In this document: piece after piece, positions 11,663 to 64,000 of the stretch | Position numbering within the stretch: position 1 is the first letter of the stretch | How the letters are laid out: each line of letters begins with the position of its first letter | Program-made: the position numbers and the translations under genes | Source: a virus | Taxonomy: Duplodnaviria; Heunggongvirae; Uroviricota; Caudoviricetes | IMG/VR virus record: IMGVR_UViG_3300045988_158394 | Direction: 5' to 3' (one strand) | DNA: 64,000 nucleotides | Notes under the pieces: model-generated | Databases searched by the model: none | What the model was told of the DNA's origin: nothing | The model's input: the letters and a program-made list of their open reading frames with translations, nothing else

Positions 11663-11679
11663 AATGCTCTAATAAATTT
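11663..11679 (+). promoter_or_regulatory. C1-repressor operator (16/17 match to ATTGCTCTAATAAATTT) ahead of the immI operon
   Basis: AATGCTCTAATAAATTT in the AT-rich intergenic region upstream of c4/icd/ant. Confidence 0.65.
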
Positions 11680-43964: not shown

Positions 43965-44638
43965 TGGCACCAACAATTTATCACCGTATCGACGGTACCA
44001 AATACAGGAATATCTGGGTTGTTGGTGATCTGCATGGTTGCTACACCAGACTGATGTCCGAACTCCATCGTGTGGATTTTGACCCAGCGCAGGATTTACT
44101 GATATCGGTCGGCGACCTTATCGATCGCGGTACTGAAAATGTCGAATGTCTGGAACTATTGCAGATGCCTTGGTTCAGGGCAGTGATGGGGAACCATGAG
44201 CGGCTGATGATTGATGCGTTAAGTCCTGATGGCAACGTGAATAACTGGCTAATGAATGGCGGACAATGGTTCTTCATGCTGGACACTGATCAGGAAATAT
44301 TAGCCAGGGCGCTGGTGGAGCTGGTAAAGCGTCTGCCCTATATCATTGAGTTGAACACCGGGCAAGAAACTATCGTTATAGCCCATGCCGACTATCCGGA
44401 TAATGAATACCAATTCGGTAAGGAGGTGCCGCTTTTCAACGTTGTCTGGGCGCGCGAGCGTATCAGTGATTCGATGGATGATATTGGTGGCGAAATTTCG
44501 GGCGCAGATCGTTTTATCTTTGGTCACACTCCGGTGAAAAGCCCGAAGACATTCTGGAATCAGCAGTATATCGACACTGGTGCCGTATTTTGCGGAAACC
44601 TGACATTGATGAAAGTGAAAGGTGATGGTGCAGCATGA
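43946..44638 (+). CDS. Ser/Thr protein phosphatase (lambda PPase-like metallophosphatase)
   Basis: GDLHG, GDLIDRG and GNHE metallophosphoesterase motifs. Confidence 0.8.
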
Positions 44639-45336
44639 AGATTGCTTTAGTTCTTCGCTCTGGTGGTGACTATAACGCTTCCGATGTGCAGTGGCTGGTT
44701 AATCAACTGCCAAAAGGCTATGAAATTATTTGCCTGACAGACCTGAAGCGTTTACATGTACCTGGCGTCAAAGTTGTCCCATTGATCAACCAGTGGCAAA
44801 AGTGCCGTGGCTGGTGGGCGAAAATCGAGTTGTTCCGACCGGATATAACCGATGATCTGTTCTATCTGGATTTGGACACGGTTATTGCCGGTGATATACG
44901 CCCAATCCTTGAGAATCCACCAACCTGCTTCACCATGCTTAGGGATTTTTACCATCCACAATATCGTGGTAGCGGTGCCCTGTGGATACCAAATAGTGTA
45001 AAAGCACATATCTGGAGTTCATTCTGGCAAGATCCGGAAGGTTGGATTGCTCGTTGTGTCACTACTGAGTGCTGGGGTGATCAGGGGTTCTTACGGAAGG
45101 TTATGGGCGATGATACACCAGCATTTCAGGATCTGTATCCAGGATGGTTTGTAAGTTACAAGGCCGATGTTGTGGAACCTGGTTCAAAATATGCGAGCGC
45201 GCGTTACTCCAGGGGGAATGGGGCATTACCAAAGGACTGCCGAATAATCTTTTTCCACGGCAAACCGCGGCCTCGCGAAGTGTCAGAGGATTGGCTTCCC
45301 CTCATTAGCTCGTTTTTTGAGCGAGAATCAGAATAA
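44635..45336 (+). CDS. Putative glycosyltransferase (DxD motif)
   Basis: 233 aa with [12 protein letters not shown] resembling GT-A fold DxD glycosyltransferases. Confidence 0.4.
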
Positions 45337-45337
45337 T

Positions 45338-45404
45338 ATTGCTCTAATAATTCCATATTTTTAAAACGTGATGTACACTCATCACGTTTTTTATTAGAGC
45401 AATC
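45338..45404. promoter_or_regulatory. Paired inverted C1-operator-like sites flanking a perfect 11-bp hairpin
   Basis: ATTGCTCTAATAATTCC (plus) and GATTGCTCTAATAAAAAA (minus) bracket AAAACGTGATG-TACACT-CATCACGTTTT. Confidence 0.6.
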
Positions 45405-45417
45405 TATAAGGTGCACT

Positions 45418-45636
45418 ATGTGGCCATTCCGACGGAAATATCACTACTGGCTGATCGCCTTTGTTACGCCGACCGGCGGTATCAGGCATGTCATCACCAG
45501 GTATCGCAACAAGAGACTCACCTTAGCCAGAATTTTACAGGCTGCCATAGGTGAGGGACTGGATACAAATTGCGTAGTCCTTCCACCTTCATACTTAGGA
45601 AAAATGACCGAAGCACAAGCTAATACGGAACTTTGA
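45418..45636 (+). CDS. Hypothetical small protein
   Basis: 72-aa ORF following the operator pair. Confidence 0.4.
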   Translation: MWPFRRKYHYWLIAFVTPTGGIRHVITRYRNKRLTLARILQAAIGEGLDTNCVVLPPSYLGKMTEAQANTEL

Positions 45637-45637
45637 A

Positions 45638-46900
45638 ATGAGCACTTCAGCACAAAACCAATCAATCGAAAATGTTTCTATCCCTGATGTCCTGAATGCC
45701 GGTATCCCGGCCATTATCCAGAACATCCGAGCCGCGCAACGCCGCGTTAGTTGTGATGACCTCACAGCGCGTTTTTTTGATAATGCGGTTCAGTCAGCGG
45801 AGATGCTTCACGCACAGCTTATTGATGTTTATAACGCAGAAGCTGATAGCCATAACTCCCTGGTAGATGCAGCTGAAAATATGCAGTTGGATCTCGGTCT
45901 GAAGGGTAAAGAAATTGAAGAGCTTCAGCTGGAAATTGAACATTTGAAACGCCAGCAACAGGACGCGATCGAAGATGCGACGCATGACGCCAACCAGCGT
46001 GCTGATAATGCCGAACGTATAAGCATTGAGCTGGAAACAAAACTCAATGAAATGACCGCGATGGTTGTGCTGCGGAACTCACAGATTTCAACTCTAAAAT
46101 CTCAATATAAAGAGATCATGAAACTTGATCCTTTTAACCTTGAGAAACGCTATAACAAAGCCAAAAGCGAGCGACAGGAACTGCGTAAGCAGATTGTCGA
46201 CCTTAACCAACAGCTCAAAAAGGCTATTAAAGATGCAAGCGAGGCGCGCGTGGCATTTGCTAATAAAAAAGCAGAGGTTACCGAGCTGGTTAATGAAAAC
46301 GCCAAATTTGCGACGCTCAAGAAGGAAATGTATGGCATTACTGAGCGCCGTTTCCCTGCAAGCAAACTCCATCCGACGTTAGGGCAAATCTCATTCTTCC
46401 CGCGCCTCCTGGCTTATGGGATCTCATCGCCTAAAGAGTTCAATAACGAGCGTCCTTATATCGTTTCTAAGCTGGACTTTGCTTATCAGTTCTGCTGCGA
46501 CATGGGCTATGCCATTGATATACGTATCAACGAATGGTTGATGCCAAACTTCCAGCCGTTGGCCATTTTCCGCGAGTTCCAGCCGGAAGGTTGGGTAGAG
46601 TTCTTCCATGAAATGATCTGTAAAGAGATGGAAAGCCGCCGCCCGGAACTGGTCCGCCGTGTCGAGTGGGCGCAAGAGGTTATGTTGGCAGATGCAGAGC
46701 TACCGTTCGAACCGGAATTCATTGATGAACTGGCCAATAAAGGGCTGCATACCCTGTTTGATGTGGTTACCCGCCGTCATGAGCAGTTGGTTGTCGAATT
46801 GGGTTTAGAGGAAACAGCGGCAAGAAGACTTCTCGATGTTTGCTATGCACGTAGCGATGCATGGGAAAAAGAGAACGGCGGCACTATTTACGTTCGCTGA
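45638..46900 (+). CDS. Coiled-coil protein (hypothetical)
   Basis: 420 aa; N-terminal half heptad-rich (EELQLEIEHLKRQQQ...). Confidence 0.5.
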   Translation: MSTSAQNQSIENVSIPDVLNAGIPAIIQNIRAAQRRVSCDDLTARFFDNAVQSAEMLHAQLIDVYNAEADSHNSLVDAAENMQLDLGLKGKEIEELQLEIEHLKRQQQDAIEDATHDANQRADNAERISIELETKLNEMTAMVVLRNSQISTLKSQYKEIMKLDPFNLEKRYNKAKSERQELRKQIVDLNQQLKKAIKDASEARVAFANKKAEVTELVNENAKFATLKKEMYGITERRFPASKLHPTLGQISFFPRLLAYGISSPKEFNNERPYIVSKLDFAYQFCCDMGYAIDIRINEWLMPNFQPLAIFREFQPEGWVEFFHEMICKEMESRRPELVRRVEWAQEVMLADAELPFEPEFIDELANKGLHTLFDVVTRRHEQLVVELGLEETAARRLLDVCYARSDAWEKENGGTIYVR

Positions 46901-46922
46901 TAGTTACAGTGTCACTTTTAAT

Positions 46923-46955
46923 GCTGGTGGAGTGCGTCCCACCAGCATTTTTTTC
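46923..46955 (+). terminator. Rho-independent terminator
   Basis: GCTGGTGG-AGTGCGTC-CCACCAGC followed by ATTTTTTT. Confidence 0.65.
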
Positions 46956-46973
46956 GTCCAATGAGGAGGGCAT

Positions 46974-47480
46974 TTGAGTATTTTCAATAAACACGCACAC
47001 CAGGAACGTCCGTATATCGTCATAGTCGATATTGATGGGACGATATCAGAGGCAACGGAAGACAGGCTGCATTTGCTTCCACCACCTGGCAAAGGTGCAT
47101 TAACAGAGCACTGGAACGAGTTTAACCTTGCCTGTGACACTGATGCTCCCATCACTCCAGTTATTGATATGGTGCGCCAGTTATTTAACGTTTACACGGT
47201 CTGGTTTGTAACCGGGCGCTGTGAGATAGCCAGGGATAAAACACGAGCCTGGTTGCGTAAGCACGTAACAAACGGGGCTGAGCCTTTGCTATCTATGCGT
47301 CCTGCCACCGATGACAGAAATGACGGCCCAGCAAAGATTGCTCTCCTTAAGAAAATTGGTCTAAGTAAAATCGCGTTCGCGCTGGAAGATAAGATTGAAG
47401 TGGCGCGTGTTTTCAGGAGTCACGGCGTACTTACGTTAATGGTCAGGGAGTATGAAAACGCGCTTCTCCATCAACAGTAA
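46974..47480 (+). CDS. HAD-family phosphatase (DxDGT motif)
   Basis: TTG start after GAGGAGGG; IVIVDIDGTIS HAD motif I. Confidence 0.55.
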   Translation: MSIFNKHAHQERPYIVIVDIDGTISEATEDRLHLLPPPGKGALTEHWNEFNLACDTDAPITPVIDMVRQLFNVYTVWFVTGRCEIARDKTRAWLRKHVTNGAEPLLSMRPATDDRNDGPAKIALLKKIGLSKIAFALEDKIEVARVFRSHGVLTLMVREYENALLHQQ

Positions 47481-47496
47481 TTGCTCTAATAAATCT
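47480..47496 (+). promoter_or_regulatory. C1-repressor operator (16/17) abutting the phosphatase stop
   Basis: ATTGCTCTAATAAATCT begins at the last base of the stop codon. Confidence 0.6.
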
Positions 47497-47674
47497 TGAT
47501 TTTTAAAACAGAGAAAGTGAAAATAAAAACATGCCGCAAGGCGCGGCATGTATCCAATCAATCACAGGAGCTGAAAATATGAACACGGCATTCAAAATCA
47601 TTATGGCCGCGATCTATTTCTGGCTGTTCTCTATCACTTTTGGCGGCATCGTCGCGCATGGGTAAGGGGGATGC

Positions 47675-48400
47675 ATGAAAGGCGAAGTGAAAGAGCGCGG
47701 CATGATTTTCAACGATGAGATGGTCCGAGCCATCCTCGAAGGAAGGAAAACGCAGACGCGGCGGATAATGAAAAATCAGCCTGCGGAAGTTGGTCCAGAA
47801 GCACCAGTGATGGTTAGGGAAATTGGTGCAGGTTTTCAGTGGTACGGGGCTGATGGTGTAAGCAGTGTTTTCAATTGCCCCTTTGGTATCGTCGGCGATC
47901 GAATTTGGGTTCGTGAAACATGGGCGATATTAGGCAATGAAGATGGTTGCAGTGTGGACTGGAACGACAACCTTTGTCGTGGCGATGAGAAGAACGCAGC
48001 AAGGATTTATCGGGCCAGTTGTGAGCAAAAGCCTGGTGATTACGGTTTATGGTCGATACCCGATGATGCCGACTGGAAACCTCACACTGTGAATGAAAAG
48101 TTTGATGGTGGGTGGCGTCCATCAATTCACATGCCGCGATGGGCATCACGCATCCTGTTGGAAATTACCAACGTGCGCGTTGAGCGGTTGAACAATATCA
48201 GCGAATGCGATGCAAGGGATGAGGGCGTTCCGCCTGCTGGAAGTTTGCTTCCTGATCACCCGGGAACATTCCTTACTCCCAAGGGGGATTTCGCAATGGC
48301 CAAGGTTGCGTTCCAGCGCCTGTGGGAATCCATCTATGGTGAAGAAAGCTGGAACGCTAATCCCTGGGTGTGGGTAATCGAGTTTGAGCGTATTCAGTAG
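47675..48400 (+). CDS. Conserved phage protein (possibly ASCH-like fold)
   Basis: 241 aa; AAGGGGG RBS; motifs MIFNDEMVRAILEGRKTQTRR, IWVRETW, HMPRWASR. Confidence 0.5.
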   Translation: MKGEVKERGMIFNDEMVRAILEGRKTQTRRIMKNQPAEVGPEAPVMVREIGAGFQWYGADGVSSVFNCPFGIVGDRIWVRETWAILGNEDGCSVDWNDNLCRGDEKNAARIYRASCEQKPGDYGLWSIPDDADWKPHTVNEKFDGGWRPSIHMPRWASRILLEITNVRVERLNNISECDARDEGVPPAGSLLPDHPGTFLTPKGDFAMAKVAFQRLWESIYGEESWNANPWVWVIEFERIQ

Positions 48401-48409
48401 GGCGAGCGT

Positions 48410-48631
48410 ATGCAATCTGTTATTTGTGAGGAAGTCGGCCTGAATAAAGCATCCCCAGCAGAGTTAAGAGCAAGTCTCGAAATGGCGCATAGCCTTGCTC
48501 AAATTGGTGTCAGGTTTGTACCAATTCCAGTTGAAACAGATGAAGAATTTCACAGGTTAGCGGCATCGGCAGCACAAAAGCTGGAAATCATGGCAGCGAA
48601 AGTAGAGAAAGCTGAAGGAGCGACAAAATGA
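48410..48631 (+). CDS. Hypothetical protein
   Basis: 73-aa ORF in a tightly packed plus-strand array. Confidence 0.4.
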   Translation: MQSVICEEVGLNKASPAELRASLEMAHSLAQIGVRFVPIPVETDEEFHRLAASAAQKLEIMAAKVEKAEGATK

Positions 48632-48843
48632 GCAAGCCAACCGACGAAGAAATAGTTCGGGTGTTGGAAGAACACGGGCGCTGTATGACTTACGTCGTGA
48701 CCAACTGGCTTAGGGATAAATATCGCACACTCAAAACGGCATACGTTTTGCGTCGTCTAAAGAAACTGGAGTTCGACGGGAAAGTAAAGCGCGTTAACAG
48801 TTCTTATATAAGACAAATTTGCTGGGAGGCATCCAGTGAGTAA
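48628..48843 (+). CDS. Hypothetical protein
   Basis: 71-aa ORF, start overlaps the previous stop. Confidence 0.4.
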   Translation: MSKPTDEEIVRVLEEHGRCMTYVVTNWLRDKYRTLKTAYVLRRLKKLEFDGKVKRVNSSYIRQICWEASSE

Positions 48844-49480
48844 CCGTTTTTACATGATGTGCTTGCGTGAAACTGTGGGTAATAACGCCTCATTCCATTG
48901 CCATAACGGCAATGGTTACAGTTCTGATATCGATCGCGCTCATGTTTACACGCTGGAAGAAGCCCAAAAAGCCTGGAATTGTGGGCGAGATATCGATCAG
49001 CCTGTTTGTGCCGATAGTGTGGATGCAATGGCTGTGTGGCACGTTGATTGCCAGTACATCCCTACAGAAAGCCCGATTGAGTCAGATTGCACTGCGTATG
49101 TGGCCTACAAAAAAGGTAGCTGGAACGGCAACGATGTTTACTGGCTTCAACACGGTGGATTGCCAACAGATGACTTCAGTAAAGCGACCATCTTTAGCGT
49201 CGCCAACAAAAACGAACCAGGAATAGTTTGGTTGCCATTTTCCATTGCTGATGCAGCAAAGCGCCGGACGTTCAATATCAATAACTTTAACCGCAGAACA
49301 ATGGTTCAGGGCGCAGGTTTGGTCATGCCTGACTGGTTGAAAGAGCAGAACAGAAGAAAGAAGTCGCGAAGCGGGAAGGTGCGTTGGAATTGTCCGCATT
49401 GCGGAAAAATAACCTGGCAGTACAGCCCATATGATTTTGAAGGCTGTAGTGATTACAACTGTGAAGGATGGCGAGAATGA
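48836..49480 (+). CDS. Hypothetical protein with C-terminal Cys cluster
   Basis: 214 aa; CPHCGK...CSDYNCEGW at the C-terminus. Confidence 0.45.
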   Translation: MSNRFYMMCLRETVGNNASFHCHNGNGYSSDIDRAHVYTLEEAQKAWNCGRDIDQPVCADSVDAMAVWHVDCQYIPTESPIESDCTAYVAYKKGSWNGNDVYWLQHGGLPTDDFSKATIFSVANKNEPGIVWLPFSIADAAKRRTFNINNFNRRTMVQGAGLVMPDWLKEQNRRKKSRSGKVRWNCPHCGKITWQYSPYDFEGCSDYNCEGWRE

Positions 49481-50157
49481 CAATTGACTATCAGGTACTG
49501 CGTGAGGCGGCAGAAAAGGCAACACCAGACGAATGGGTCGCATTTATTTCGACGGATACTGGTACTTATGCGGTGCACACGCCCGGTGATGAACGATGTG
49601 AAGACGTTATCAAATGGACCGGCTTTGATGGACAGAAAAATGCAGAGAACAACGCTCGTTATGTTGCCGCGTTCAACCCAAAGGTTGCACTGGAGCTGCT
49701 TGGTGAAATTAAGCGCCTGGAGGACACAAATATTGATGCTATGTGCCGAATTGCAGAGCTTGAGACTAATCTCGCGGCGCTGGTGGCGGAGAATGCGGGG
49801 CTTAAGGCCTTCAAAACCGCCGTTTATCAGCAGATGGGCGTCGGATGTGATGCTCCTGAATTCTCCATTACGGTAGGTTTGAGTAACTTACGTCGTTTTG
49901 CTGACACACTCCACGCCATTGAGCGTGAGTTCTTTACCAAAGAGCTACCTGATGAAGAGCACGAAGGCGAAACATTCAATGAATGTCCACTTAGCTGGGG
50001 AATGAGCGTCGAACAGTACGTTTCCGAGTTTCGCAAATGCCTGGCTGAAGTACGGGCGCAGGGCGTGGAGATGTTTGCGGAGTGTGCATACACACTTGAA
50101 CATCATGATCACGCAGTAGCCTTCGCCGCTGAGCTTCGCAAAGGAGGCAACCAGTGA
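49468..50157 (+). CDS. Ead/Ea22-like protein, copy 1
   Basis: N-terminus MTIDYQVLREAAEKATPDEW typical of lambdoid Ea22-like proteins. Confidence 0.5.
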   Translation: MARMTIDYQVLREAAEKATPDEWVAFISTDTGTYAVHTPGDERCEDVIKWTGFDGQKNAENNARYVAAFNPKVALELLGEIKRLEDTNIDAMCRIAELETNLAALVAENAGLKAFKTAVYQQMGVGCDAPEFSITVGLSNLRRFADTLHAIEREFFTKELPDEEHEGETFNECPLSWGMSVEQYVSEFRKCLAEVRAQGVEMFAECAYTLEHHDHAVAFAAELRKGGNQ

Positions 50158-50648
50158 GCGAAATTAATTACCAGGCACTGCGTGAGGTGGCGGAACGTGC
50201 AATTCCAGCAATGGAACGCCTGTTAATGTTGCCAGCTGATGATGACTTGTTAAGTGAACAGGAACTTAAAGATTACGGTGTGGATATTGATGCGCTCAAC
50301 GCCTTCAAATTTCTGGCCGGACCAGAAACCGTGCTGGCACTACTTGATGAACGGGAAGCAGACAAAAAGCGCATTGCAGAACTGGAAGATCGGGAAATAA
50401 AACCAGCCAAAGGTGAAGTTCTTGTCGTTGTTTCTGGTTTTACTGGTTGCGGAAAAAGCGCCATTGCCGGGGAAATAGAAATCGCGATGAAGGCTATTGG
50501 TGTACCGGTTCAGTGGACTAATGGCGATGCGGAAAAGCGCATGACAGGAGCTGACTGGCTGACAGCGATTGAGATGTACAAACCAACAGTGCGCATCGTG
50601 GAAGTTAATGTGCCACGCGCCGCAGGCATTCGCATCAAAGGAGAGTGA
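50154..50648 (+). CDS. Ead/Ea22-like protein, copy 2
   Basis: N-terminus MSEINYQALREVAERA paralogous to the preceding gene. Confidence 0.5.
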   Translation: MSEINYQALREVAERAIPAMERLLMLPADDDLLSEQELKDYGVDIDALNAFKFLAGPETVLALLDEREADKKRIAELEDREIKPAKGEVLVVVSGFTGCGKSAIAGEIEIAMKAIGVPVQWTNGDAEKRMTGADWLTAIEMYKPTVRIVEVNVPRAAGIRIKGE

Positions 50649-50649
50649 T

Positions 50650-50847
50650 ATGGACAAAAACACACCTGCTTACTGGAGTTTATCACTTGATACTGAATGC
50701 CCAAAATGCGGCCACAATTTCGATCTGCTTTGCGATGCTGATTTCTGGGAATTTTCTGGAGCAAAACAGGCATGTGAAGAAATAAAAGATTACGAAACAT
50801 GCTGCCCAGAATGTAACCATGAATTTAAAACAGATTTTGTGTATTGA
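50650..50847 (+). CDS. Small Cys-rich protein
   Basis: Start at ATG 50650; two CxxC pairs (CPKCGH...CCPECNH). Confidence 0.4.
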   Translation: MDKNTPAYWSLSLDTECPKCGHNFDLLCDADFWEFSGAKQACEEIKDYETCCPECNHEFKTDFVY

Positions 50848-50857
50848 GGCATAACGA

Positions 50858-52129
50858 ATGACCACTTTTACTAAAGAACAATTAATAGAGATAATTAAGC
50901 GCAATATAACGGTTATGGATCGTTATCCTGATTTAGTAACTGCACAAATGGATCTGGAAGTATACAAAATCGCGCTGGCATCACTGGAAGCAGAACCAGT
51001 TGCTTATATTTTCAAACATCCGGCCGGGAAATTATTCTGGGCTTTAACGGATGAAAGCAATAAAGAGCAACCGGACGTTATTCCTGTTTATGCCGCCCCT
51101 CCAGTGCCAGTAGTACCTGAAGAAAAACCAATGCCTAACGCTCTAAGCATGCTTGAAAGAGAGATCACACAACTGATTGGTGATGCGCAGGAAGCCACTG
51201 TTACTGGCTATGAGTTAATCGCTGAAGCTTGGCGTTTGATGGATGGACAAGACCCTAAAACCAGCGATTGGCATAGCAAGGCTTCGAAGTATTTAAATTC
51301 CAATATTGTAGAAAAAGTTGATGATGACCGTATTGAGGCTGTTAAGGCTGTTTTGCGTAGACTGGCTGGCAACTCTCCGGTAATTCCAGGTGAGGTGCTG
51401 TCAGCAATTATGAAGGTTGCCAGGGTTCGTGCCGATTTCGATGATTTTGACGGTGACAGGCGAGGTATCGGTGATTGTCTGGATGAGGCTGAGCAAGAGC
51501 TTATCGTTACCATTAACAAATATGCCAGTCAGTTGGCAGCAGAACCGATAGCGACTAATGACGTTCGAGAGCAGCAGACAGCCGTTCCGCCAGTTCCTGT
51601 AATACAGGCTGATGTCGCGCAAGCAATTGAAAATCTCAGGCAGAAGTTAGTGGAATGCAATCGCTATAACTACTGCGCAGATGCAGTTAAGGGCGTAGAG
51701 GATGCCTGCCACGCTGCCATGCTTCAGGGTATCCAACCTGTAAGCCAAACTTACAAGTTTCCAGTTAATACACCTTGCCAGGATGCGCCAGCCCATATCT
51801 GGCTGCAAACAGCTGGAGTATGGCCAGAAGATGGCGAGTTAAGCGAATTAACGTGGTGCAGCCACAATCAGCACCATGATGACACGCTATATGTTCGAGC
51901 TGACTTGGTAAATGGCAATTCTCCGGTAACTCCGGATGGTTGGATAAGCTGTAGTGAGCGAATGCCCGCTCAAGATGATTGGATTTTAATTTATTCAAAG
52001 CACAGTGAGTATATGGCAGGACAGGTGCAAGGGGAATACGTGGAGTTGAGCGACGGCACTTTATCGTGGTTAGGGAACGCCTTGTTCTGGATGCTGCTAC
52101 CAGAACCTCCCCAGGAGGCAGGTCAATGA
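50858..52129 (+). CDS. DUF551-like C-terminal domain protein
   Basis: 423 aa; C-terminus WISCSERMPAQDDWILIY resembles the lambdoid DUF551 domain. Confidence 0.45.
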   Translation: MTTFTKEQLIEIIKRNITVMDRYPDLVTAQMDLEVYKIALASLEAEPVAYIFKHPAGKLFWALTDESNKEQPDVIPVYAAPPVPVVPEEKPMPNALSMLEREITQLIGDAQEATVTGYELIAEAWRLMDGQDPKTSDWHSKASKYLNSNIVEKVDDDRIEAVKAVLRRLAGNSPVIPGEVLSAIMKVARVRADFDDFDGDRRGIGDCLDEAEQELIVTINKYASQLAAEPIATNDVREQQTAVPPVPVIQADVAQAIENLRQKLVECNRYNYCADAVKGVEDACHAAMLQGIQPVSQTYKFPVNTPCQDAPAHIWLQTAGVWPEDGELSELTWCSHNQHHDDTLYVRADLVNGNSPVTPDGWISCSERMPAQDDWILIYSKHSEYMAGQVQGEYVELSDGTLSWLGNALFWMLLPEPPQEAGQ

Positions 52130-52622
52130 GCTGGCCTGAAGCATTCGCAACGGTAGGAATTGTGATGGCGGCAGCACTGGGTTTGTATTCAATTTGTCGC
52201 TGGTGGTAACGATGGGAAAAATAACTTTTGTAGTCGATTTGAGGATGGTAAAGAGCCACCTGTTAGCGCCAATCTTGATGTTGCTGGTGGAAGGCTTGTT
52301 TCGGTTCTATTTGGTGACAACCGAGATGACTTCTTCCAACCAGAAGAAGTTGATGTAGTGCGAGAGGCATTAAACGAGTTAAGTGTTGACAACGATGATG
52401 CTCATGCGGAAATCATCCAAAAAATGGAACTGCTAACTCACTAAATTATCAATTATGGTGCTATCACCTACGACACCGAGAGAAAATTTATAATGTCAAA
52501 AGTAAATGTTTTGATTTTTTCAGCAATTGTTGGCTTTGGTTTTACTGCCGGAGTGCAGATTTATATTACGTGGGAAAAAATCATCAACTACGCATGGAGT
52601 TGTTTTATTAAGTGAGGTAAGT

Positions 52623-52916
52623 ATGTGGAGAGGTAATAGTCATGGCAAAAGCCAGATGATACTTACCGAATATCAGCTCGACCACAAAACCAATAAATCA
52701 CGTTCAGTATATTTGCTTCGCCACAATAGCCGCGTAAGGAATACCGTACTGGAGCAAAATCTGACCGTTGAAATGGATAATTACGGGGGCTTCAAGCCAA
52801 CAATATCGCTTGATGATTTTCCTCGTGGTTTAAGCGAAAGAGAAGCAATGCTGAAATTAGCAGAATGGCTACAAAGATTAAGCATTGCTATTGAAGATAA
52901 CTGGTCTGAACCTTAA
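52623..52916 (+). CDS. Hypothetical protein
   Basis: Start at ATG 52623 after GAGG; the longer track ORF starts at 52527. Confidence 0.4.
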   Translation: MWRGNSHGKSQMILTEYQLDHKTNKSRSVYLLRHNSRVRNTVLEQNLTVEMDNYGGFKPTISLDDFPRGLSEREAMLKLAEWLQRLSIAIEDNWSEP

Positions 52917-52922
52917 ATTAAT

Positions 52923-53297
52923 ATGATGACACTAAAACATTTTCTTGACCGCCCATTATGGGCGGCAGCCGCAGGCTATGACTTTAATTATATGGATTGC
53001 ATGTCTTATACTGCCAATGCATACGACCATTCGTTCAGCCTGCTGTTTAATTCTTTAAGAATATTGCCGGAAACAGAAGTTGGAGAGCTTCATTTATGGA
53101 TATTGGGCTTTATCGCGGCTGTCGTTGGTATTGCTGTATGGCCTTTTATTTTCTGGCTGGTGGCTGTTGTAGTGTGGTTTAAGTGCAAGACATACCGGAG
53201 AAAGTATTTCTTAGGTGATGGAATGACTGATATTGCCAAAATGAACATTGAAAAATGGACTAAGGAATGTGAAAAGAAATGGCGCAAAAAGAAATGA
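52923..53297 (+). CDS. Membrane protein
   Basis: 124 aa with a hydrophobic segment (LWILGFIAAVVGIAVWPFIFWLVAVVVWF). Confidence 0.45.
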   Translation: MMTLKHFLDRPLWAAAAGYDFNYMDCMSYTANAYDHSFSLLFNSLRILPETEVGELHLWILGFIAAVVGIAVWPFIFWLVAVVVWFKCKTYRRKYFLGDGMTDIAKMNIEKWTKECEKKWRKKK

Positions 53298-54211
53298 CCA
53301 GAATCACTGAAGAGCGTATATCAGAGACTATTTCCCGTATCGAAATGTATGGTCACGGTGCTGGATATACGGCAGATGAAGTATTGGCACTTGCCCAAAT
53401 GGCTTTGGCGGCTTGCAAAGATGATAAAAAAATGAAGCTTATCGACTTGTTAGTGAAGGAGCTGTCTAAGTGCGGCGGGTGGCCTGATGGAATGAGTTAT
53501 TGTTACCTACCCAGTGTCAATTTAATGGCACCATGCGCGACTTTTGCTTTTGGCTCAGACCACAAAAAAGACACTTTCTTTGGGCGCAATTTTTGTTGTG
53601 AGATTGAGCTTCCAATTGGTGACCTTGATAGCGATGAATACCAGTCAGTTGTCACTCGCGAACAATACGAATCAGCTCTCATAGCGTCGCAGAAAGTCGA
53701 GTTCAATGGTGATGAACTTGAAAGTAAGACTTACAGGTTGGATTTTGGGCAATGGCTGGAACAGCAACGCGGGAAAATCGATGTGGACTGTGGTTGTGTG
53801 TCCACTGAAACATTCATGCACTGGCTGCGGGTAGCTTACGAGGCTGGCAACTATCCGGACATTCCGGATAGTTCGGTGCCAGCGAAAGGAAAGGGCGTCC
53901 CCGGTGAACGTATCCGAATTAAGCCGCATGTTTATCGCGAACTGGTTAACCGCCTCCACGATACAGCGGTCAAGTGTGCTGGCACCCAGCAATTACGAGA
54001 AAGAATTAGCCGTGTTTTGGGCGACGTTATTACGCCAGATCATCATAAACAAGCCGAGAAAAGTGACCTAGAAAGGTGTCACCTTGAGGCGGCATTAAAC
54101 ATTAAGCCGGGGCATACGCTTGGCATTATCGATGCTCTGTTGGTTCATAAGATGGCCATGGCTTTATTGCCGTTGGTGGATGCTGGCGATACAAGCGAGG
54201 GTGAAGTATGA
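53279..54211 (+). CDS. Hypothetical protein
   Basis: 310-aa ORF, coupled to neighbours. Confidence 0.45.
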   Translation: MAQKEMTRITEERISETISRIEMYGHGAGYTADEVLALAQMALAACKDDKKMKLIDLLVKELSKCGGWPDGMSYCYLPSVNLMAPCATFAFGSDHKKDTFFGRNFCCEIELPIGDLDSDEYQSVVTREQYESALIASQKVEFNGDELESKTYRLDFGQWLEQQRGKIDVDCGCVSTETFMHWLRVAYEAGNYPDIPDSSVPAKGKGVPGERIRIKPHVYRELVNRLHDTAVKCAGTQQLRERISRVLGDVITPDHHKQAEKSDLERCHLEAALNIKPGHTLGIIDALLVHKMAMALLPLVDAGDTSEGEV

Positions 54212-60376: not shown

Positions 60377-61860
60377 TGGCCAGAAGTTGCGTAACGGATC
60401 CACGTTGGCGCGAGCTGGTGGCGCTATATCGTTATGACTGGATTGCTGCCGCTGATGTTTTGTTCGGCAAAACACCTACCTGGCAGCAGGATCTGATTAT
60501 TGAGTCTGTGCAGGAACAGGGTAGCAAGACATCTGTTTCGTCTGGTCACGGTACCGGGAAATCAGACATGACTTCTATCATGATCATGTTGTTCATAATC
60601 ATGTATCCCGGTGCCCGCGCCATTATCGTTGCGAACAAAATTCAGCAGGTAATGACCGGTATATTCAAGTACATCAAGATAAACTGGGCTACTGCCACCA
60701 GCCGTTTCCCATGGCTTGCTGATTATTTTGTTCTGACAGAAACCGCTTTCTATGAGGTTACTGGTAAAGGTGTATGGACTGTAGTACCGAAGGGCTTTCG
60801 TCTGGGAAGTGAAGAAGCTCTCGCCGGTGAACACGCAGATCATCTTCTGTATATTATCGATGAAGCCTCCGGTGTCAGTGATAGAGCTTTCGGTATCATC
60901 ACCGGTGCTCTTACCGGACAGGATAACCGCATCTTATTGCTGTCACAGCCTACACGCCCAAGCGGCTATTTCTACGATACTCACCATAAACTGGCCAAGC
61001 GTCCTGGTAACCCTGATGGCGTTTATACGGCGATCACGCTTAACAGTGAGGAATCACCGCTGGTAACGCCAGCATTTATCAAAATGAAGCTGGCGGAGTA
61101 CGGCGGTCGCGATAACCCTATGTACATGATTAAGGTACGCGGCCTATTCCCTAAATCACAGGATGGCTTCCTTCTTGGACGTGATGAGGTTGAACGTGCA
61201 ACGCGGCGGAAAGTCAAGATTGCAAAAGGATGGGGCTGGCTTGCATGTGTGGACGTTGCTGGTGGTACGGGACGGGATAAGTCCGTTATCAATATCATGA
61301 TGGTGTCCGGCCAGAGAAATAAACGCCGTGTAATCAACTATCGAATGCTGGAATACACAGACGTTACAGAAACGCAGCTTGCCGCCAAAATTTTCGCAGA
61401 ATGTAATCCTGAGCGATTCCCAAATATTACCATAGCGATAGACGGCGATGGCCTGGGTAAAGCAACGGCGGATCTGATGTACGAGTATTATGGTATTACC
61501 GTACAGCGTATACGCTGGGGTAAAAAGATGCATAGCCGTGAAGATAAGAGCCTGTACTTTGATAAACGTGCTTATGCCAACGTTCAAGCCGCAGAGGCCG
61601 TAAAATCTGGTCGTATGAGACTGGATAAGGGTAATGAAACTATTGAGGAAGCGTCGAAAATCCCTGTAGGGATTAACTCCGCAGGTCAATGGAAGGTGAT
61701 GAGTAAGGAGGATATGAAGAAAAAACTCAACCTGCACTCACCAGACCATTGGGATACATATTGTTTCGCTATGCTGGCGGATTATGTTCCCCAGGACGAA
61801 GTGCTTAGCGTCGAAGACGAAGCGCAGGTTGATGAAGCTCTGGCATGGCTTAATGAATGA
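60376..61860 (+). CDS. pacB: Terminase large subunit PacB
   Basis: 494 aa; Walker-A-like SSGHGTGKS, Walker-B-like [10 protein letters not shown]; start overlaps the pacA stop. Confidence 0.8.
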
Positions 61861-61863
61861 ATA

Positions 61864-61880
61864 TTTGCTCTAATAAATTG
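61864..61880 (+). promoter_or_regulatory. C1-repressor operator (15/17) heading the second immI-like module
   Basis: TTTGCTCTAATAAATTG, 4 bp after the pacB stop. Confidence 0.6.
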
Positions 61881-62011
61881 TGTTTTTTAACTACCGATGT
61901 TACATTGAACCTGACCTCTTGCGCCTTGAGGCATTTTCGGTTTATGCTTATCAGGCACCTCAGTAAAACGGGTGCCGGGATTGAGACCCCGGATAATGCA
62001 AAAGGCGACAC

Positions 62012-62034
62012 AGACGCCAAAAGCGTCTTTTTTT
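62012..62034 (+). terminator. Terminator/attenuator hairpin in the leader of the second immI-like module
   Basis: AGACGC-CAAAA-GCGTCT followed by TTTTTTT. Confidence 0.55.
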
Positions 62035-62083
62035 GTGTCATGCCATCGCACAGCCATACGTAGCGTTTAGCTCAGAGATCAAT

Positions 62084-62159
62084 GGTAGTGCTGGCTGGGC
62101 TGCCGAAAGGCAGGCCGGTTCCCTTTTGCGCCGGTAGTCTCAACCCAGTCAGTGCTACC
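62084..62159 (+). ncRNA. c4-like antisense RNA, second diverged copy
   Basis: GGTAGTGCTGG...CCAGTCAGTGCTACC closing stem with internal hairpins, same position relative to icd' as the first c4; GTCTCAA is complementary to TTGAGAC downstream. Confidence 0.4.
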
Positions 62160-62219
62160 GCCATTGAGATTGAGACCTCACGCGGTAGCTCCTTAAATTA
62201 GCAAAAGGAGGCTGCCATT

Positions 62220-62441
62220 GTGGCTACTATCCCTACCCCTGCTCATCCTGAATTTATCTGGCGCTTTTACTCCTGCCAAAAACGTCACTATCACTTCGTT
62301 ATTGCACCGACAGAAGATGAGGCACGTTCTCAGCTTCCGGATGCTCCCTGTATTTTCTCTGCCCGCTTTTCTACCGATTCGCGCAATTCTCTCAGTTACT
62401 GGTGCCTCCCTGTTAACGCTTCTGCTCAGGAGGGACTATGA
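62220..62441 (+). CDS. Icd paralogue (73 aa)
   Basis: MATIPTPAHPEFIWRFYSCQKRHYHFVIAPTEDEARSQLPDAPCIF... clearly paralogous to Icd at 11994-12215; GTG start after AAGGAGG; stop overlaps the next start. Confidence 0.7.
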   Translation: MATIPTPAHPEFIWRFYSCQKRHYHFVIAPTEDEARSQLPDAPCIFSARFSTDSRNSLSYWCLPVNASAQEGL

Positions 62442-63550
62442 GAACGTCATTAGTCACCCGTGAAGAGATGATCGAGGCAATTGAACAGCACACTGCCTGT
62501 ATCAGTACCAGGGATATACCGGGCGTTATTGCCAACTACTTCATGATCACCAAACAACTTTACCGGAGAAAGGACAAACACGCGGTTCACCGCATTCTGC
62601 TAACCGATATCCGTGAATACCTGCTCGAACAGGGTCATCTGAATTACGCAACCGTCGCAGCCGAAGCACGCAAGGAGGCACACAGAATGAAAGCAACTAA
62701 CGTTAAATCAGAAAAAATTTATGCACCTTCAGTTCAGGAATCGGAACTGGTGGTTGTTCAGAATCAGCCGGATGAAATTCCCGTTCTGGAATGGCAGGGA
62801 GTACGTGTCGTGACAACCGAAACTCTTGCTAGAGGGTATGGGGTCGATGAAGCCAATATTCGCAACAATTTGTCTCGCAACCTTGACCGCTTTGAAGCAG
62901 GTAAGCATTACTTTCTTCTAACTGCTTTAAAATTAAGAGAATTTAAGAACAGAGTAACCGGAAGTTACTCTGTTGGTAAGAACGCCAGAAGCCTTACACT
63001 CTGGACAGAGCGCGGCGCTGCACGCATGTCTAAGATCGTGGACACAAATGAAGCATGGGCATTCTTTGAAAAACTGGAAGACAGCTACTTCCGGCAAAAA
63101 GAACAGCAACCGGTTGCAATCCCCCAGACGCTTCCAGAAGCTCTGCGCCTGGCTGCCGAACTGGCTGAACAAAAGCAGCTTCTGGAACAGAAAGCCCACC
63201 AGCTAAATCAGCAGCTGGTGGCCGCCGCTCCTAAAGTCGATTTTGCCGACCGGGTATCAGTAGCTAAAGGGATCCTGATTGGGAATTTTGCAAAGGTTGT
63301 TGGACTTAAGCAAAACGCGCTGTTTGCCTGGTTACGGGAGAACGGCATCCTGATAGCGTCCGGTGGACGTAAAAATGTGCCGTTCCAGCAGTACATCAAT
63401 GCGGGGTATTTCACGGTGAAAGAAGTGGTGCTGGATGATGAAGATGGCTACCAGATACGGTTGACGCCTCAATTAACGGGTAAAGGCCAGCAGTGGTTGA
63501 CGCGTAAACTGCTCGATGCTGGCTTGTTAAAACCGGTGGCGGCTGAATAA
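62438..63550 (+). CDS. Antirepressor paralogue with Bro-N-like middle domain and KilAC-like C-terminus (internal start at 62687)
   Basis: 370 aa; N-terminal 80 aa paralogous to Ant1; conserved AAGGAGG before internal ATG 62687; central Bro-N-like segment; C-terminus near-identical to Ant1. Confidence 0.7.
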   Translation: MRTSLVTREEMIEAIEQHTACISTRDIPGVIANYFMITKQLYRRKDKHAVHRILLTDIREYLLEQGHLNYATVAAEARKEAHRMKATNVKSEKIYAPSVQESELVVVQNQPDEIPVLEWQGVRVVTTETLARGYGVDEANIRNNLSRNLDRFEAGKHYFLLTALKLREFKNRVTGSYSVGKNARSLTLWTERGAARMSKIVDTNEAWAFFEKLEDSYFRQKEQQPVAIPQTLPEALRLAAELAEQKQLLEQKAHQLNQQLVAAAPKVDFADRVSVAKGILIGNFAKVVGLKQNALFAWLRENGILIASGGRKNVPFQQYINAGYFTVKEVVLDDEDGYQIRLTPQLTGKGQQWLTRKLLDAGLLKPVAAE

Positions 63551-63582
63551 TGGAAGAATGCCCGGTTGATGCCGGGCATAAT

Positions 63583-64000
63583 TTATTGCGCGCTTTCGGG
63601 GTTGTCGTTTACTGGCTGCCCCTTCTTGGTTTTACGGCTGCGCGTAACTGATGCGGCTGACTTAACCTTTTTCTCTTCGCGAGTGATGGCAATTTGTTTT
63701 TTTACATTTTCAATATCTGCCAGGCGATATATTTTTGCCTGCGGCCAGCGGTCGCAGATGATCGGTTCTATGGAGTCATAAAGGCTAAATTTTGCTTTTT
63801 CGAATTCACCGTTGATGATAATTCCATCACGGAGAGTTTCATCGCAGATAAACACGCCACACAGTGGCACATGGTAACTAACTGATTTACCATCATTGTA
63901 GTTAGGGCTACTGGAAATGTAGTGGACGCGCAGCATTGTTTCGCTAAAGCCGTGTACGCGCATACGGAATTTTTCATCCTCCGGGTACTGCCTCATTAGC
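63583..64000 (-). CDS. c1: Probable C1 repressor, C-terminal portion (gene starts beyond window end)
   Basis: Minus-strand frame open to the window edge, convergent on the ant-like gene; position as expected for c1. Identity not verifiable here. Confidence 0.45.
   Translation of the reverse strand, partial: LMRQYPEDEKFRMRVHGFSETMLRVHYISSSPNYNDGKSVSYHVPLCGVFICDETLRDGIIINGEFEKAKFSLYDSIEPIICDRWPQAKIYRLADIENVKKQIAITREEKKVKSAASVTRSRKTKKGQPVNDNPESAQ

Follow-up and report, generated by a model that had tools for sequence, protein, structure and literature searches.

The region between pmgQ and pmgR in the P1-like phage-plasmid considered here contains two inverted C1 operators, which, together with the promoter they accompany, are already known: they have stood in the records of P1 and P7 since 2004. 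What can be added to the known locus is modest, namely comparative evidence from sequences that an unannotated hairpin lying between the operators may serve as an RNA element of the + strand, nested in the promoter. The best explanation of the whole, a C1-repressed promoter within which is nested a + strand terminator, is in my judgment probably correct.

The window, by which I mean the whole stretch of 64,000 nt that was analysed, represents a P1-like phage-plasmid, its identity to P1 and P7 being about 98%. A blastn comparison to the P1 record shows it to follow P1 36430-93648 collinearly, apart from a few segments that have been replaced. Over 44600-46900, identity to phages P1, P7, RCS47 and SJ46 is 97.7-98.1%, and a plasmid of E. 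coli O111:H- 11128 matches 45150-45650 at 100% identity. Of c1, the 3' part is present at 63584-64000 (96.4% identical to P1 93232-93648, within the c1 coding sequence), as an open reading frame of 137 aa on the - strand that runs past the end of the window. Between pacB and c1 lies a segment (61858-63584) without counterpart in P1, which opens with an operator-like site, TTTGCTCTAATAAATTG (61864-61880), and which codes for a protein of 370 aa (62438-63550) bearing ORF6N and ANT/KilAC antirepressor domains. A portion of its gene (63200-63534) is 86% identical to P1 ant1, and the protein may be a second C1-controlled antirepressor. A further stretch of about 5.5 kb (48369-53836) is absent from the P1 record at that place, both of its flanks being equivalents of P1 85182.

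The inverted sites occupy the intergenic region between pmgQ (44635-45336) and pmgR-pmgS (45418-46900), and the genes neighbouring this region are all on the + strand. The pmgQ homologue, taken from the list of open reading frames and about 98% identical to its counterparts in P1 and P7 (where the locus is named pmgQ/hdmD), is the last gene of the pmgN-pmgQ unit, and only 1 nt separates the end of its stop codon from the first operator. The controlled genes, both open reading frames of the + strand, are pmgR (45418-45636) and pmgS (45638-46900). A Shine-Dalgarno-like AAGGTG (45408-45413, +) is found in the sequence 4 nt upstream of the ATG of pmgR at 45418, and a strong terminator-like hairpin called by the terminator scan 3' of pmgS (46920-46949, +; -18.1 kcal/mol) is likely the end of the pmgRS unit. 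Deletion of pmgR, an essential gene, leaves heads and tails unjoined, and complementation in trans works (PMC9024508). Knock-down of pmgR by CRISPRi gave no phenotype, and the gene was scored as non-essential, contrary to its known essentiality (PMC10695390); since the knock-down of pmgR itself was so scored, CRISPRi is uninformative regarding the structure of the operon or the dependence of pmgR on upstream transcription. Further downstream, between OpmgT (47480) and pmgT, the - strand at 47529-47551 offers a strong terminator-like hairpin whose T-run is also on the - strand, amidst genes on the + strand. An Rfam match to GcvB overlaps this hairpin, weak and below threshold (E = 0.16), and is probably due to chance.

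Read along the + strand, 45338-45403 is ATTGCTCTAATAA-TTCCATATTTTT-AAAACGTGATG-TACACT-CATCACGTTTT-TTATTAGAGCAAT. The outer arms, 45338-45350 (ATTGCTCTAATAA) and 45391-45403, are exact reverse complements, a 13-nt perfect inverted repeat as reported by the repeat finder. The C1 operator consensus is an asymmetric 17-bp sequence, ATTGCTCTAATAAATTT (as quoted in PMC8546580). It is matched in 14 of 17 positions, the first 13 perfectly, by both operator a, ATTGCTCTAATAATTCC, at 45338-45354 on the + strand and operator b, ATTGCTCTAATAAAAAA, at 45387-45403 on the - strand. Sites with three or fewer mismatches to the consensus number 11 in the window, as against 0.42 expected from shuffled sequences. 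A preliminary description, made from the letters alone, had seen two operator-like sites on opposite strands flanking a perfect 11-bp hairpin, and it was accurate: the two sites and the hairpin correspond to perfect inverted repeats of 13 and 11 nt, and each site agrees with the consensus to the extent just given.

The same description took the sites to be C1 operators in a regulatory intergenic region, and judging from sequence identity this is what they are. Each is a 17-bp site already annotated as a C1 operator, OpmgRa or OpmgRb (Op86a/b), assigned to pmgR-pmgS in P1 and to the sht operon in P7. In the P1 record (AF234172), the + site (P1 82152-82168) is the “monovalent C1-controlled operator OpmgRa,” formerly Op86a, controlling pmgR and pmgS, and the - site (82201-82217) is OpmgRb, formerly Op86b. 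Both are entered there as C1 protein_bind features, and PpmgR is entered as a predicted sigma-70 promoter. The P7 record (AF503408) names the sites Op(sht[a]) and Op(sht[b]), operators of the sht operon. The locus, the sites, their orientation and their spacing are the same as here, and nothing material differs: the whole hairpin and both operators are identical in the window, P1 and P7, and the single base by which the window departs from P1 falls in the linker 3' of site b (CTATAAGG vs CTACAAGG). A search of the accessible literature, which did not extend to the original P1 genome paper and the primary operator papers, returned nothing relevant on Op86, OpmgR and Op72ab.

The preliminary description went too far in calling this pair unique in the window as a bidirectional arrangement of operators. 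Another inverted pair, in this case overlapping, is found at 31810-31826 (+) and 31821-31837 (-), and it maps to the annotated divalent ban operator of P1, Obanab/Op72ab. The second overlapping pair of P1, Oc1ab at c1, is outside this window. Obanab (Op72ab) and Oc1ab (Op99ab) resemble the present pair in that two inverted 17-bp C1 sites are found at one promoter, but in those cases the sites overlap, with an offset of 11 bp, whereas here a hairpin and T-run intervene and the distance is 49 bp, each site being termed “monovalent” in the P1 record. On account of its 49-bp offset, the 45338-45403 pair does not belong to the bivalent class (the Op72ab/Op99ab type), whose sites overlap at an offset of 11 bp.

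Two observations concern the operators of the window more broadly. Six + strand operators (starting at 11663, 13333, 28288, 45338, 47480 and 61864) have a common motif downstream, approximately ATTGCTCTAATAAATTT-nnn-TTTTTTAAn, with the T-run and then TAA about 20-28 nt from the start of the operator, suggesting that they share a promoter-operator cassette, or that the recognition element extends beyond the 17-mer. The site equivalent to Oppp/Op83 of P1 (42621-42637, -) is degenerate, TATGTACTAATTAATTT as compared to CATGCACTAATTAATTT in P1, and was missed by the consensus search.

In total, 142 related loci were considered, falling into three lineages with PmgS identity down to 69%. Searches with PmgS found 82 loci in IMG/VR and 2 in GTDB, and searches with DNA patterns found 51 in metagenomes and 3 in IMG/VR. 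To these were added P1, P7, Cronobacter phage JK004 (PmgS 68.8% identical) and two Salmonella plasmids. A scan of GTDB for distant relatives gave only the two close loci, and scans of IMG/VR and the metagenomes for such relatives gave only the same three lineages. Matches to PmgS at about 20-25% identity were set aside, as they did not come from P1-type elements.

The order operator a, hairpin, T-run, operator b is kept in all loci. Sites a and b are offset by 49 bp throughout, except in two loci (L054 and L121), where one extra T makes it 50 bp. Variation was counted in the 81 loci found by protein, a set that is unbiased with respect to DNA. In these, minor alleles number 0 in the core of operator a, 1 in the core of operator b, 0 in the loop of the hairpin, and 7.2 per column in the linker of 5 nt that joins operator b to the ribosome-binding site. 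(The figure for diversity at the 3' end of pmgQ is left out, because it is inflated by misalignment of indels.) Both cores and the 49-bp offset are retained in the JK004 and Salmonella lineages, at about 69% PmgS identity, and core a is identical there. By these comparisons the operators are under purifying selection relative to their flanks.

The linker itself (45404-45408) is hypervariable even among relatives otherwise 97-98% identical, appearing in at least 10 variants, amongst them CTACA, CTATA, CCATA, CCAAA, TTACA, ATACA and CAAAA. The core of operator b is altered in a single relative, L055 (IMGVR_UViG_2744054872_000006, 2696-2780), which has ATCAGAG for ATTAGAG; its hairpin also shows a G-U change, and its spacer 3' of operator a has several changes.

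The hairpin, AAAACGTGATG-TACACT-CATCACGTTTT (45363-45390, +), consists of a perfect 11-bp stem, containing a 7-bp core (CGTGATG/CATCACG), and a 6-nt loop. Its arms, 45363-45373 and 45380-45390, were given by the repeat finder as an 11-nt perfect inverted repeat, and perfect hairpins of at least 11 bp number 9 in the window, as against 0.13 in dinucleotide shuffles. The full stem folds with -12.9/-13.4 kcal/mol (z about -5.5 to -5.7), with -13.4 kcal/mol on either strand, and the 7-bp core stem alone, with four G-C pairs, with -8.5 kcal/mol. Right after the core stem on the + strand comes a T-run, TTTTTTATT (45387-45395), which overlaps operator b and would be the U-tract of the proposed terminator. 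The six T columns are invariant in an alignment of 34 sequences. On the - strand the stem is followed by the tail UUUUAAAAAUAU / UUUUAAAAA, the long T-run being confined to the + strand.

The JK004 and Salmonella lineages differ from the window by two double compensatory changes (one from G-C to A-U and one from A-U to G-C), and five further stem pairs vary on one side only, always so as to give G-U on the + strand. There are 19 stem haplotypes among the 142 loci. All five of those found in at least two loci are fully paired on the + strand, while four of the five are mismatched on the - strand; seven singleton haplotypes have one + strand mismatch each. The stem of JK004 folds with -13.5 kcal/mol on the + strand as compared to -5.8 on the -, where it suffers 3 mismatches, and that of Salmonella N1543 with -13.5 as compared to -9.7. 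Counts of haplotypes are not phylogenetically independent, and the strand asymmetry should be read as good but non-conclusive evidence. With that understood, it argues that the hairpin has been selected as an RNA of the + strand, in one direction only. The proposal in the preliminary description of a bidirectional terminator is unsupported for this reason, and also because the T-run is found only on the + strand and the neighbouring genes are all on that strand. An E-value scan with Rfam over 44500-47700 gave no known RNA family at the site of the hairpin, and in those parts of the P1 and P7 records that were inspected no terminator is annotated, the hairpin included.

If the hairpin is an RNA element, the function that comes most readily to mind is an intrinsic terminator of the upstream pmgN-pmgQ unit, and on balance I favour this from its sequence and position. 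As with Rho-independent terminators of enterobacteria and their phages, a stem-loop is followed directly by a U-run, shortly 3' of a stop codon, and the pairs covary. The hairpin begins 26 nt past the stop codon of pmgQ, at the end of a transcription unit, and rightward promoters point at it from upstream, namely PpmgN and, at a distance of 3.6 kb, the late promoter LPpmgL. It differs from those terminators in its short, GC-poor core, in being nested in the promoter of the next unit, and in the repressor site that overlaps it. Several considerations weigh on the other side. The energy of the core stem is -8.5 kcal/mol, as against the -18.1 of the hairpin 3' of pmgS. RNA-seq at 30 min, given as gene-level fold changes (PMC8201110), drops only about 0.8 log2 from pmgQ to pmgR, and in the wild type pmgS is back up, so that termination does not show at this level. 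The benefit of a terminator before an essential morphogenetic gene is not obvious if late read-through matters. Finally, the hairpin went uncalled by the consensus terminator scan, whether in the window, in JK004 or in the Salmonella plasmid. The scan misses it because the stem is extended through four A-T pairs, after which there are too few T's in the tail.

The promoter of pmgR-pmgS presents a different problem, as there are two candidates. PpmgR as annotated in P1 and transferred by alignment (45339-45367, +) has a -35 of TTGCTC (45339-45344), within OpmgRa, a 17-bp spacer, and a -10 of TAAAAC (45362-45367), predicting a start in the loop of the hairpin or where its left arm ends (about 45373-45376). 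The placement of the -35 at positions 2-7 of the operator is also that of the established promoter P1ban. However, the annotated -10 is without the final T, and the key second A is a G in JK004 and in four loci of the P1 lineage. The alternative (45352-45379, +) has a -35 of TCCATA (45352-45357), a 16-bp spacer, and as its -10 the hairpin loop itself, TACACT (45374-45379), with a predicted start at about 45385-45387. The loop fits TAnnnT throughout, as TACACT in the P1 lineage, within which it is invariant, and as TATCAT elsewhere. A promoter scan of the window called neither candidate, each being weak, with 7 of 12 matches to consensus. In JK004, the scan calls TTTACT-16-TATCAT (9 of 12) at the place equivalent to the loop. 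The annotated -10 of PpmgR may thus be the wrong hexamer.

A known promoter of P1 has the same geometry as the alternative. In Plpa/Olpa (P94/Op94), the -35, at operator position +14, overlaps the operator at its 3' end, and the -10 falls at +36, exactly the position of the loop TACACT here. Plpa is unlike the present case in that it has one operator only, its hexamers (TTGCTA / TATTAT) are near consensus, and its -10 is not enclosed in a hairpin.

That there is a promoter at this place may be judged from published RNA-seq of P1vir in wild-type and dksA hosts, expressed as log fold changes (Table S1 of PMC8201110). At 10 min, the values for pmgO to pmgQ are 6.9-7.4 in the wild type and 6.1-6.6 in dksA, those for pmgR are 9.0 in both, and those for pmgS are 10.0 and 9.1, respectively (PMC8201110). 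Comparable C1-controlled early genes give 10.0 (ant1) and 8.6-9.4 (the dmt operon) in the same data (PMC8201110). The early step-up at pmgR amounts to 4- to 8-fold (data of PMC8201110), with the understanding that the values are fold changes rather than absolute levels and so the comparison across genes is approximate. Since the early values of pmgR and pmgS are high, like those of C1-controlled early genes, a promoter evidently fires early at the junction, which would suit either pair of hexamers.

Two other kinds of promoter were sought at the site and rejected. A late Lpa-dependent promoter does not fit, the -22 boxes of six P1 late promoters (approximately ACAAGTGACT) being unlike the hairpin, with no TAnnnT at the right distance. 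Nor does a leftward promoter from site b, there being no acceptable -10 at 16-18 bp in the window (AGTGTA). A promoter-like ATGATA-18-TAAAAT is seen on the - strand in the JK004 and Salmonella-plasmid lineage (L086 2212-2241, L087 3201-3230), with the hairpin loop, read as its reverse complement, for a -35. The P1 lineage does not have this site, and for that reason a leftward promoter was rejected as a conserved feature.

These elements can be put together as follows. In the lysogen, C1 and its corepressor Lxc would sit on sites a and b and keep the pmgRS promoter off. Site a overlaps what would be the -35 of the sigma-70 promoter for pmgR-pmgS, and site b would cover the start or the early transcribed region, from +2 to +18 under one choice of -10 and from +13 to +29 under the other. 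When C1 is inactivated, the pmgRS promoter would fire early. The hairpin followed by UUUUUUAUU on the + strand would most likely act as an intrinsic terminator, or as a stabiliser of the 3' end, for transcripts from PpmgN and LPpmgL, which upon forming the hairpin would end at least partly in the T-run. The pmgRS transcript, both of whose predicted starts fall inside the hairpin or past it, would lack the full stem and escape termination. In this way the upstream unit would have its terminator nested in the promoter-operator of the next. A more elaborate version is conceivable though doubtful, that of a three-in-one insulator. In this version, a + strand terminator, whose loop is the -10 of the next promoter, is bracketed by two C1 sites; in lysogens, C1 bound to the U-tract would make a leaky terminator a complete block, and after induction the same DNA would end the upstream unit and start pmgRS inside the hairpin.

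One could dispense with RNA altogether and suppose that the region is a core promoter with its -10 in the loop, palindromic in its flanks by chance and bracketed by operators, with nothing terminated. Such a promoter would account for the invariance of the loop in the 81 loci and its agreement with TAnnnT in all lineages, for the geometry shared with Plpa, for the promoter called in JK004, and for the silence of the terminator scan. It would leave unexplained why a spacer or discriminator, which has no reason to remain complementary, has been held by two compensatory changes and repeated + strand G-U changes to a stem of about -13 kcal/mol in three lineages, and why the T6 run that follows is invariant. 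I consider it unlikely that the hairpin is without function in RNA.

C1-mediated looping has been reported at the c1 region of P1, and the preliminary description proposed that C1 binding here might loop the site or gate read-through into the operon downstream. For gating, C1 at site b would be a roadblock to transcription from the upstream operon into pmgRS through a bidirectional terminator. The two conserved sites, their fixed 49-bp offset and the overlap of site b with the U-tract are in keeping with this. However, O26/Op82 and Oppp/Op83 are C1 operators belonging to the upstream unit, whose late promoter moreover depends on Lpa, an activator itself repressed by C1, so there is little in the lysogen that needs gating. 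Furthermore, 49 bp from centre to centre would be very short for a loop, an extra T is tolerated in L054 and L121, and the terminator is not bidirectional. The model is improbable in my estimation. Neither looping nor gating by C1 is needed, classical repression of the promoter being the simpler reading.

Two further readings deal with the outer arms. The RNA of operator a might pair with that of operator b in late read-through transcripts, producing a 24-bp bulged duplex and with it a site for RNase III that separates the mRNA of pmgQ from that of pmgRS. The extended 66-nt fold is indeed stable (-26.9 kcal/mol, z = -7.7), but when a and b are scored as strands of an RNA helix they do not covary, and the terminal pair of that helix is broken in JK004 and the Salmonella lineage. 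The cores are therefore conserved as sequence, as fits a protein site and not RNA pairing, and recognition by C1 accounts for their invariance, making the RNase III duplex very improbable. Scarcely credible, lastly, is that the 66-bp palindrome, long and near-perfect as it is (arms of 13 and 11 bp with a 12-nt bulge), acts as DNA, whether by forming a cruciform or by binding some dimeric protein that is not C1, for the outer arms are accounted for by the C1 consensus, and 3 of the 11 stem positions in JK004, like the common variants in the P1 lineage, are asymmetric in DNA yet pair as G-U in the + strand RNA.

The importance of the locus beyond the biology of P1 is small. Within that biology, a C1-repressed promoter with a nested + strand terminator would provide a compact and testable example of a terminator overlapping the promoter of the next unit and a repressor site, ahead of an essential morphogenesis gene, pmgR. 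The possibility that the -10 of PpmgR has been wrongly placed may be useful to those who engineer P1 or P1-like phage-plasmids.
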